A DNA stretch of 64,000 nt from NCBI RefSeq assembly GCF_003018235.1, contig NZ_CP027437.1; one strand, written 5' to 3'. Shown here one piece after another: positions 57,497 through 60,044 of the stretch (its first letter is position 1; each line of letters starts with the position of its first letter). The notes below the pieces were generated by a model, which was not told the DNA's origin, ran no database searches, and was given only the letters and a program-made list of their open reading frames with translations. A program made the translations under genes and the position numbers. This DNA is from Escherichia coli. Lineage in GTDB: Bacteria > Pseudomonadota > Gammaproteobacteria > Enterobacterales > Enterobacteriaceae.

Positions 57497-57514
57497 TTCC
57501 TACAATTGTAAGGC
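57497..57514 (+). promoter_or_regulatory. EvgA-box-like 18-bp inverted repeat upstream of yfdX
   Basis: TTCCTACA-AT-TGTAAGGC resembles EvgA consensus TTCPyTACA-N2-TGTAPuGAA; 136 bp before yfdX ATG. Confidence 0.5.
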
Positions 57515-57649: not shown

Positions 57650-58282
57650 ATGAAACGTTTAATTATGGCTACGATGGTCACAGCAATTCTGGCATCTTCA
57701 ACTGTATGGGCGGCTGATAATGCACCGGTAGCGGCACAACAGCAAACTCAGCAAGTTCAGCAAACCCAGAAAACGGCAGCAGCAGAGCGTATCTCTGAAC
57801 AAGGTTTATATGCGATGCGTGACGTGCAGGTAGCGCGCCTGGCTCTGTTTCATGGCGATCCGGAAAAGGCAAAAGAACTGACCAATGAAGCTTCAGCTTT
57901 GTTGTCAGATGACAGTACCGAATGGGCAAAGTTCGCTAAGCCAGGTAAAAAGACCAATGTCAATGATGACCAATATATTGTCATTAATGCATCTATCGGA
58001 ATTTCTGAGAGTTATGTAGCGACACCCGAAAAAGAAGCCGCGATAAAAATTGCCAACGAAAAAATGGCGAAAGGGGATAAAAAGGGCGCAATGGAAGAGC
58101 TTCGCCTGGCCGGTGTTGGCGTAATGGAAAACCAATATCTGATGCCGCTCAAACAGACTCGTAATGCACTTGCTGATGCGCAGAAACTGCTTGATAAAAA
58201 GCAATACTACGAGGCAAACCTGGCGCTTAAAGGTGCGGAAGATGGAATCATCGTCGATAGCGAAGCACTGTTTGTGAACTAA
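57650..58282 (+). CDS. yfdX: periplasmic YfdX-family protein (EvgA-regulated)
   Basis: 210-aa ORF with signal peptide. Confidence 0.88.
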
Positions 58283-58340
58283 CGCTGACAGGCAGTATAT
58301 TGAGGTAAAGGATTTAACTCCCTCCAGCCGACAATTTTTT

Positions 58341-58369
58341 ATGACCACAATACGACAGATTGTGGTCAT
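58341..58369. repeat. perfect 11-bp inverted repeat with 7-nt loop, downstream of yfdX
   Basis: ATGACCACAAT-acgacag-ATTGTGGTCAT; no U-tract directly after the stem on either strand. Confidence 0.6.
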
Positions 58370-58793
58370 AAAATTATTTGGCGCTCGCGGTTCTATAAAC
58401 TCGCATTTTATCTTCCTCAAAGTAAACCGCAATAATCCCGTGTCATCACAAATCATTTATTATGTTATGTTTTATGGTACGCTTTAAAAATCGTAATCAT
58501 ACCCTTACTTGTAAATCACCGGCGCTTCTTACAGTTGTAAGAATAACATCACAAATGTCGCGGCTCTCTCTGATTACCGCGAACCAATATTTATCATATT
58601 CTTCTTTTCGTCCTCACTACTTACCATGCAGAAAGGAATTGGAAGTAGCGATGAAATGATTTTCAGTACTTGATACAGGAATTTAAAAATATCGAGTGCA
58701 GCTACGACGATATTTTGCGGATTATTTATAGAGGCGTTATGTCTTAAATAAACGCTAAATTAACACATATTTAATTAACTAATAGGTATTGCT

Positions 58794-60044
58794 ATGTCAA
58801 CTCCACTTCAAGGAATTAAAGTTCTCGATTTCACCGGTGTGCAATCTGGCCCATCTTGTACTCAAATGCTGGCCTGGTTTGGCGCTGACGTCATTAAAAT
58901 TGAACGTCCCGGCGTTGGTGACGTAACGCGTCACCAGCTGCGAGATATTCCTGATATCGATGCGCTTTACTTCACCATGCTTAACAGTAACAAACGTTCT
59001 ATTGAATTAAATACCAAAACAGCGGAAGGCAAAGAGGTAATGGAAAAGCTGATCCGCGAAGCTGATATCTTAGTCGAGAACTTTCATCCTGGGGCCATTG
59101 ATCACATGGGCTTCACCTGGGAGCATATTCAAGAAATCAATCCACGTTTGATTTTTGGTTCGATCAAAGGGTTTGATGAGTGTTCGCCTTATGTGAATGT
59201 AAAAGCCTATGAAAACGTTGCTCAGGCAGCGGGTGGCGCGGCATCCACTACGGGTTTTTGGGACGGTCCGCCGCTGGTAAGCGCTGCAGCGTTGGGTGAC
59301 AGCAACACCGGAATGCATTTACTGATCGGTTTACTTGCTGCTTTGCTGCATCGCGAAAAAACGGGGCGTGGGCAACGAGTCACCATGTCAATGCAGGATG
59401 CCGTATTGAACCTTTGCCGCGTGAAATTACGCGACCAGCAGCGTCTCGATAAATTGGGTTATCTGGAAGAATACCCGCAGTATCCGAATGGCACATTTGG
59501 TGATGCAGTTCCCCGCGGAGGTAATGCGGGTGGTGGCGGTCAGCCTGGCTGGATCCTGAAATGTAAAGGCTGGGAAACCGATCCTAACGCCTATATTTAT
59601 TTCACTATTCAGGAGCAAAACTGGGAAAACACCTGTAAAGCCATCGGCAAACCAGATTGGATTACCGATCCGGCATACAGTACAGCCCATGCCCGACAGC
59701 CACATATTTTCGATATTTTTGCTGAAATCGAAAAATACACTGTCACTATTGATAAACATGAAGCGGTGGCCTATTTGACTCAGTTTGATATTCCTTGTGC
59801 ACCGGTTTTAAGTATGAAAGAAATTTCACTTGATCCCTCTTTGCGCCAAAGTGGCAGTGTTGTTGAAGTGGAACAACCGTTGCGTGGAAAATATCTGACA
59901 GTTGGTTGTCCAATGAAATTCTCTGCCTTTACGCCGGATATTAAAGCTGCGCCGCTATTAGGTGAACATACCGCTGTGGTATTGCAGGAGCTGGGTTATA
60001 GCGACGATGAAATTGCTGCAATGAAGCAAAACTACGCCATCTGA
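58794..60044 (+). CDS. frc: formyl-CoA:oxalate CoA-transferase (family III)
   Basis: 416-aa [46 protein letters not shown]... Confidence 0.93.

Follow-up and report, generated by a model that had tools for sequence, protein, structure and literature searches.

The 64-kb stretch of Escherichia coli DNA analyzed here (the window) contains the genes lpxP (-), yfdY (+), ypdI (-), yfdX (+), frc (+), and oxc (+), in that order, with the identities of yfdX, frc, and oxc taken from the RefSeq annotation of near-identical E. coli loci. yfdX (57650-58282, + strand) was delimited from the list of open reading frames and from the RefSeq annotation of the K-12 locus and a 99.8%-identical one, and encodes a 210-aa protein of the periplasmic YfdX family, whose homologues are matched by Pfam PF10938. 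The next gene downstream, frc (58794-60044, + strand; open reading frame list and RefSeq annotation), encodes formyl-CoA transferase. Between the two genes lies a gap that is AT-rich (35.8% GC, as compared to 50.8% in the window), as an earlier note on this DNA had described it, although its length is 511 bp rather than the 510 bp given there. The sequence of this spacer is 99.8% identical to that of E. coli strain 266917_2 and 96.5% identical to that of K-12.

The EvgA box consensus, TTCYTACANNTGTARGAA, which reportedly originates with Masuda and Church in 2003, was matched with at most two mismatches at only two sites in the 64-kb window, where 0.03 matches would be expected by chance. One of these EvgA-box-like sites (TTCCTACAATTGTAAGGC; 57497-57514, + strand) lies upstream of yfdX and would mark the promoter that drives the hairpin-containing transcript described below; the yfdX promoter is reported to be directly activated by EvgA~P (PMC5706723). 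The other is a zero-mismatch box upstream of frc (TTCTTACAGTTGTAAGAA; 58526-58543, + strand), and this perfect match indicates that frc-oxc has an EvgA-dependent start of its own, 3' of the hairpin. The frc box and about 40 nt downstream of it are kept in the Yersinia loci considered below. Yersinia-conserved blocks following the box (58526-58600 and 58640-58793) contain TAACATCACAAAT..TCTCTCTGATTAC, CGTCCTCAC, and CTTAAATAAACGC. Judging from this sequence, frc may have a leader of some 200 nt in which several elements are conserved.

A direct check of the window sequence located the inverted repeat ATGACCACAAT-ACGACAG-ATTGTGGTCAT at 58341-58369, present as the earlier note had reported it, i.e., with exact 11-bp arms and a 7-nt spacer. 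The perfect repeat is really 15 bp, with a 5' stem arm (TTTTATGACCACAAT; 58337-58351, + strand) that is 100% complementary to the 15-nt 3' arm (ATTGTGGTCATAAAA; 58359-58373, + strand) across the 7-nt loop ACGACAG (58352-58358, + strand), the sequence of which varies among orthologues while its length is constant. The stem shares its strand with yfdX and begins 55 nt beyond the stop codon of that gene; the perfect EvgA box of frc follows 153 nt after the hairpin. In MG1655, the hairpin occupies positions 2493676-2493712 of the - strand. Immediately after the stem comes a U-rich tail, TTATTTGG (58374-58381, + strand; MG1655 2493668-2493675, - strand), followed by an untranslated spacer in which C exceeds G and which reaches to the frc EvgA box (58382-58525, + strand).

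RNA of the + strand was predicted to fold with an energy of -25.8 kcal/mol (z = -7.8) when an outer 5-bp helix, which in the predicted fold lengthens the duplex in E. coli, was included. The stem-loop alone accounted for about -18 kcal/mol in E. coli and for -17 to -21 kcal/mol across all orthologues. Only four of the 15 stem pairs are G-C, and A-U pairs make up all six positions at the base. The palindrome exceeds chance: perfect hairpins of at least 15 bp (loop of 3-10 nt) occur twice in the window and in none of 200 dinucleotide-preserving shuffles, those of at least 11 bp had a shuffle mean of 0.165, and 11 distinct perfect hairpins of at least 10 bp (loop of 3-10 nt) were found in the window as compared to a shuffle mean of 0.63. 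In most of the window's other perfect hairpins, a GC-rich stem stands between an A-run and a T-run, as in classical terminators. The yfdX hairpin is the exception, its stem being AT-rich and placed between a T-run and an A-run. The palindrome is not itself an EvgA box (TTCYTACA-N2-TGTARGAA), since the window matches that motif only at 57497 and 58526.

Distribution of the hairpin in E. coli and related loci

Of 5426 complete E. coli genomes, 5403 carried the hairpin, at one locus each (median 1). Another count gave a median of two places per genome, most likely because the palindrome is its own match when the other strand is read. The earlier note had proposed a search of the genome for other copies; the window holds no second exact copy of the palindrome, and the 5426 complete E. 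coli genomes have it at a single locus, which rules out a REP/BIME or other dispersed extragenic palindrome. Likewise, a plasmid collection held no family of such repeats, the few matches being on very large records, three of which are chromosome-sized (4.8-4.9 Mb). The element is previously unannotated. RefSeq has no feature at the palindrome, Rfam covariance models gave no match at the gathering score and only sub-threshold matches to microRNA precursors, i.e., those of a generic hairpin, and a full-text literature search for the palindrome sequence returned irrelevant matches only.

Within E. coli, the hairpin varies at few positions. The K-12 type allele, found in about 86% of genomes, has G at 58359, which makes the innermost pair U.G in + strand RNA, and the window-type allele (about 7-9% of genomes) has A at that position. 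The perfect 11-bp arm of the earlier note is therefore a property of the window-type allele, but not of the ~86% of genomes, K-12 included, in which the innermost pair is T.G. The G-C type allele, carried by 257 genomes (4.8%), differs at 58344 (A>G) and 58366 (T>C) jointly, so that the A-U pair seen in about 5150 E. coli genomes became G-C. When intermediates at 58344/58366 were queried directly, A.C was found in none of about 5400 E. coli genomes, and G.U gave a single match at >=99% that was missing from the full-length matches; this lone match most likely arose from partial alignment to an IS-disrupted strain in which the 3' half of the hairpin is intact. The loop also has a variant in E. 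coli, ACGACCG.

Among the sampled E. coli genomes, the stem was broken only in strain 730V1 (O19:H7; NZ_CP061764.1, our locus L019, 1300-3610), which has IS903B in the hairpin loop, flanked by a 9-bp target duplication (TACGACAGG). The same strain has an IS5 about 30 nt upstream, in the yfdX 3' UTR, and with these two insertions 730V1 is a natural hairpin knock-out. A 241-bp scaffold assigned to Limosilactobacillus vaginalis DSM 5837 (NZ_GG693475.1; L017, 1-241) is identical in sequence to the 3' end of E. coli yfdX followed by the start of the hairpin, and is almost certainly E. coli contamination of the L. vaginalis assembly.

YfdX-based searches returned yfdX-frc loci from Yersinia vastinensis (L010), Y. 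alsatica (L025-L028), a related metagenomic lineage (L029/L030), and an enterobacterial contig (L031), and a scan of genome contigs with YfdX returned only E. coli, Y. vastinensis, and a non-syntenic locus of Buttiauxella. In Y. vastinensis, Y. alsatica, and the metagenomic loci L029 and L031, the hairpin keeps its place after yfdX, although its loop and the greater part of the 3' UTR around it differ. Both arms are identical to those of E. coli in the two Yersinia species, T-run and A-run included, whereas the loop is ATGATTG and both flanks differ. Only a few islands of the spacer are conserved between E. coli and Yersinia, namely the hairpin, the frc EvgA box/promoter region, and the frc leader with its Shine-Dalgarno region. 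YfdX encoded by the yfdX-frc block of Y. vastinensis and Y. alsatica is 82-84% identical to that of E. coli, and some Yersinia contigs have IS1 directly upstream of the block, which suggests that the island was horizontally acquired.

The metagenomic lineage L029/L030 encodes a YfdX that is 82% identical to that of E. coli, and L029 has G.U at pair 58344/58366, the same pair that is G-C in the E. coli sublineage. L031 is a GC-rich enterobacterial contig with the gene order hdeA-hdeD-yfdX-frc and a YfdX identity of 68%. Its hairpin, GGCCACAACC-ACGGAAC-GGTTGTGGCC, has G-C at pair 58344/58366, C-G in place of the innermost U-A, and one extra C-G pair, with a loop that is still 7 nt, and it has lost the A/T runs and any U-run. 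CCACAA and TTGTGG are 11 nt apart in L031, as compared to 9 nt in both E. coli and Yersinia. Just 5' of the stem, AGCCGACAAU is kept in L031, where the remaining 3' UTR cannot be aligned. Abutting the 5' side of the stem, AGCCGACAAT (58327-58336; about 1965-1974 in L031) is common to E. coli and L031 and absent in Yersinia.

The L031-type stem, GGCCACAACC..GGTTGTGGCC, also occurs in 67 unrelated metagenome contigs (L045-L111), none of them with the hairpin near yfdX or frc; many are in an A-run/T-run context and look like ordinary terminators of other organisms. In Klebsiella-type and related loci, the yfdX-frc spacer is only 123 bp and has a different hairpin, which likewise lacks a U-run and lies some 35 nt upstream of frc (GACAAAGCC..GGCTTTGTC or GCCATATGC..GCATATGGC; L037, 2170-2215, and L041, 775-815). 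Distant YfdX loci (Klebsiella-type, Dryocola, and others) were set aside as uninformative, having other downstream hairpins or a convergent sensor-kinase gene.

Terminator-like features of the yfdX hairpin

According to the earlier note, no U-tract follows the stem on either strand and the palindrome is not a canonical intrinsic terminator. The first statement holds for the 11-bp core and for the - strand, where no T-run follows the stem, but not for the full 15-bp stem, after which the + strand of E. coli reads UUAUUUGG. A terminator-like scan called this arrangement, with 15 pairs, a 7-nt loop, and 5 T of 8 in the tail, so that the hairpin may function as a weak intrinsic terminator, with release possibly taking place at the tail TTATTTGG. 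The second statement was borne out. Using our own implementations of a TransTermHP-type tail score and a d'Aubenton-Carafa-type d score, we obtained values of -2.92 and -16, respectively, for the yfdX hairpin of E. coli (window and K-12), as compared to -3.0 to -5.3 and +8 to +37 for six classical terminators in the same window. A stable + strand RNA stem-loop is predicted downstream of the gene, but its stem is AT-rich (four G-C pairs in 15), it lacks a GC-rich base next to the U-tract, the polarity of the flanking runs is reversed, and it does not reach a positive composite terminator score.

Among the orthologues, Yersinia has CTCTCTGT and L031 has ATGTCCTG at the position of TTATTTGG, and the tails (CUCUCUGU and AUGUCCUG, respectively) contain no U-tract. 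Scores for Yersinia and L031 were correspondingly about -1.0 to -1.1 for the tail and -33 to -53 for d. Since the U-run is missing in these relatives, the conserved feature is the hairpin and not the U-run.

The published 3'-end maps consulted gave no signal at the hairpin. Term-seq by Adams et al. (2021) in LB and M63 found no 3' end in the yfdX-frc spacer, and yfdX was almost silent in both media. The TERMITe, TRS, and SMRT-Cappable-seq supplements likewise contained no yfdX 3' end. Adams et al. (2021) also reported no Rho region in the spacer, the sole nearby one being inside yfdX at MG1655 2494302 (-). By offset, this Rho termination region corresponds to about position 57750 of the window, roughly 100 nt into the yfdX CDS, and would fit a gene that is poorly translated or silenced when cells grow in standard media. 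Downstream of the hairpin, the plain ratio of C to G was 1.6-1.8 over the 60-150 nt following the core in the window, 1.5-1.8 over 100-150 nt in E. coli, 3-4.7 over 60-100 nt in Yersinia, and about 1 in L031 beyond the first roughly 30 nt. The spacer at 58382-58525 is, by its composition, a candidate zone of Rho loading and read-through.

Based on these features, it could be argued that the 15-bp hairpin and UUAUUUGG suffice to release most polymerases, i.e., that this is an efficient Rho-independent terminator of yfdX. The hairpin is strong and is in the correct place and on the correct strand, it is called by the scan, its tail score is near the range of the true terminators of the window, and frc has a separate EvgA box downstream. 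However, the last six pairs of the stem are A-U and only four of 15 are G-C, the d score is far from that of the window's classical terminators, and the hairpin is conserved while the U-run is not. In addition, yfdX, frc, oxc, and yfdV were induced to similar extents at pH 5.8, and yfdXWUVE has been treated as a single operon (PMC3720670), so strong termination at the hairpin is not evident; any termination is likely partial, or is hidden by the second promoter. Taken together, we consider efficient termination unlikely.

Pairing, base identity, and other roles of the palindrome

The trimmed hairpins were aligned to examine covariation, giving 7 distinct sequences with two varying pairs. Standard pairs occupied 93% of the cells of this alignment, as compared to 36-54% when partners were slid. 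The two varying pairs change on both sides, the innermost pair being U-A, U.G, or C-G across orthologues, while nine core pairs (CCACAA/UUGUGG and neighbours) are invariant even at 68% YfdX identity. Most measures were not significant against shuffle controls, there being 7 distinct sequences, and the covariation is thus supportive of a paired structure but not proof of it. Judging from these alleles, pairing is the property that is maintained.

The strand could also be addressed from the alleles. With the G at 58359 that about 86% of genomes have, RNA of the + strand can still form a U.G wobble, whereas - strand RNA would have C.A mismatched. Use of the hairpin by a - strand RNA was rejected on this weak evidence, as the K-12 and L029 alleles both give C.A mismatches on that strand but G.U pairs on the + strand, and no T-run is present on the - strand. 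The sequence comparison favours an element that acts as RNA on the yfdX (+) strand. A small ORF beginning at an ATG in the palindrome (58341-58487, 48 aa) was also rejected, since it has no Shine-Dalgarno sequence, stops after four codons in Yersinia (ATG ACC ACA ATA TGA), and lacks the start codon in L031, where no ATG is present.

The invariance of the core raises the possibility that the RNA is recognized by its sequence, e.g., as an RNase III site on the extended duplex or as a site for a 3'-UTR-binding protein, and that it sets the ratio of yfdX to frc expression instead of only holding off exonucleases. The CCACAA/UUGUGG core, together with AGCCGACAAU, which is conserved even in L031, exceeds what structure alone explains, and the core could reflect recognition of its sequence and not only of the fold. 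The outer 5-bp helix, which lengthens the E. coli duplex, would also suit this reading, as would the unrelated hairpins without a U-tract in the short Klebsiella-type yfdX-frc spacer. Nevertheless, slow evolution of paired positions can by itself yield an invariant core, no Rfam family was matched, and a 15-bp stem is short for RNase III. We therefore give such an element only a small chance of being correct. In its regulated form, a protein or ribonuclease would read the CCACAA/UUGUGG core and the 5' flank AGCCGACAAU and so tune, as part of the acid response under EvgA, the amount of transcription or message that passes beyond yfdX to the oxalate-decarboxylation genes; we consider this form very unlikely as well.

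The earlier note had leaned in part toward a dimeric protein-binding site, and a double-stranded DNA operator acting on the expression of frc or yfdX, or as a roadblock, would account for the perfect dyad, for arms that are identical in E. coli and Yersinia despite diverged flanks and loop, and for a CCACAA/TTGTGG core that is invariant in all orthologues. The comparison of alleles argues against this proposal. Both arms changed symmetrically in 257 genomes with no intermediates, asymmetries of the G.U type are tolerated, including that of L029, the loop is free in sequence and constant in length, and the half-sites are shifted by 2 bp in L031, where a fixed spacing would be expected of an operator; for these reasons, RNA pairing is favoured over DNA half-sites. 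Furthermore, the palindrome has one copy per E. coli genome and no second in the window, which leaves no regulon, it does not match the EvgA box, it is quoted in no paper found by full-text search, and its position downstream of yfdX and 153 bp upstream of the frc EvgA box is an unusual place for an operator. An operator is accordingly very unlikely. It is no more probable that the hairpin is a neutral leftover kept by the shared ancestry of a horizontally moving island, as the apparently acquired Yersinia loci (IS1 alongside, 82-84% YfdX identity) and the IS903B in the loop of one E. coli strain might suggest, since the flanks have diverged and the arms have not, compensatory changes occurred in two lineages, and retention in L031, at 68% protein identity and amid an unalignable spacer, argues for selection.

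The yfdX hairpin and known 3'-end structures

Of the readings considered, we favour, with moderate confidence, one in which the hairpin in the 3' UTR sets and stabilizes the 3' end of the yfdX mRNA and, in E. coli, probably doubles as an intrinsic terminator that is leaky and may be backed up by Rho. This corresponds to the other suggestion of the earlier note, an RNA processing or stability element, which is the one preferred here. The lack of a signal in the 3'-end maps, the treatment of yfdXWUVE as a single operon, the similar induction of its genes, and the invariant core count against this reading. We propose the following sequence of events. Transcription would begin at the EvgA~P-activated yfdX promoter and, 55 nt after the stop codon, RNA from 58337-58373 would fold into the 15-bp stem and 7-nt loop (about -18 kcal/mol). 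The stem-loop would determine where a monocistronic yfdX mRNA ends and would block 3'-to-5' exonucleases. In E. coli, UUAUUUGG (UUAUUU in the RNA) probably adds weak, leaky intrinsic termination, which would release a fraction of the polymerases. Those that read through would enter the untranslated spacer, in which C exceeds G and where Rho could halt them, and exonucleases would trim the read-through tail back to the hairpin. The frc-oxc-yfdVE genes would then be transcribed anew from their own EvgA box, 153 nt further on.

If this is correct, the genes that textbooks group as the operon yfdXWUVE would more likely form two units, each driven by EvgA, with yfdX by itself in one, frc-oxc-yfdVE in the other, and a leaky hairpin between them. 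The transcript map of EvgA-dependent acid resistance would be refined, although the effect would be modest, and no new question would be opened for the field. The element is most likely an ordinary 3'-end hairpin of an already known kind.

Among known systems, the REP elements of malEFG are intercistronic hairpins that act as stabilizers. The yfdX hairpin resembles them in following the first gene of a nominal operon, where it could make the message of the preceding gene more abundant than that of the genes after it, but it is single-copy, is not a member of the REP/BIME family, and precedes a gene with its own EvgA box. With canonical intrinsic terminators it has in common a hairpin of comparable energy in the 3' UTR and, in E. 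coli, a U-rich octamer on the coding strand. It differs from them in its AT-rich stem and basal A-U pairs, in the T-run on its 5' side and the A-run on its 3' side, in its sub-threshold score, and in a U-run that is not conserved.

[quoted passage not shown] Such stem-loops lie at steady-state transcript ends and are followed by an enrichment of C over G (PMC6061677). The yfdX stem-loop is similar in that it occurs soon after the stop codon, has a weak or absent U-tract and no upstream A-tract, and, in E. coli and Yersinia, is followed by more C than G. The hairpins of Yersinia and L031 fit the stem-loop definition of that class (PMC6061677), whereas the E. coli tail is moderately U-rich, i.e., richer in U than is typical; upstream of the stem lies a T-run and not an A-run. 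Dar and Sorek also proposed that stem-loops of this kind switch easily to and from intrinsic terminators during evolution by way of their uridine content (PMC6061677). A drift of this sort is seen after the yfdX stem, which is followed by UUAUUU in E. coli, by CUCUCU in Yersinia, and by no U-run in L031. If our reading is correct, this conserved hairpin, which is followed by a U-run only in E. coli and not in the relatives, would be a clean natural case of the switching that they proposed.
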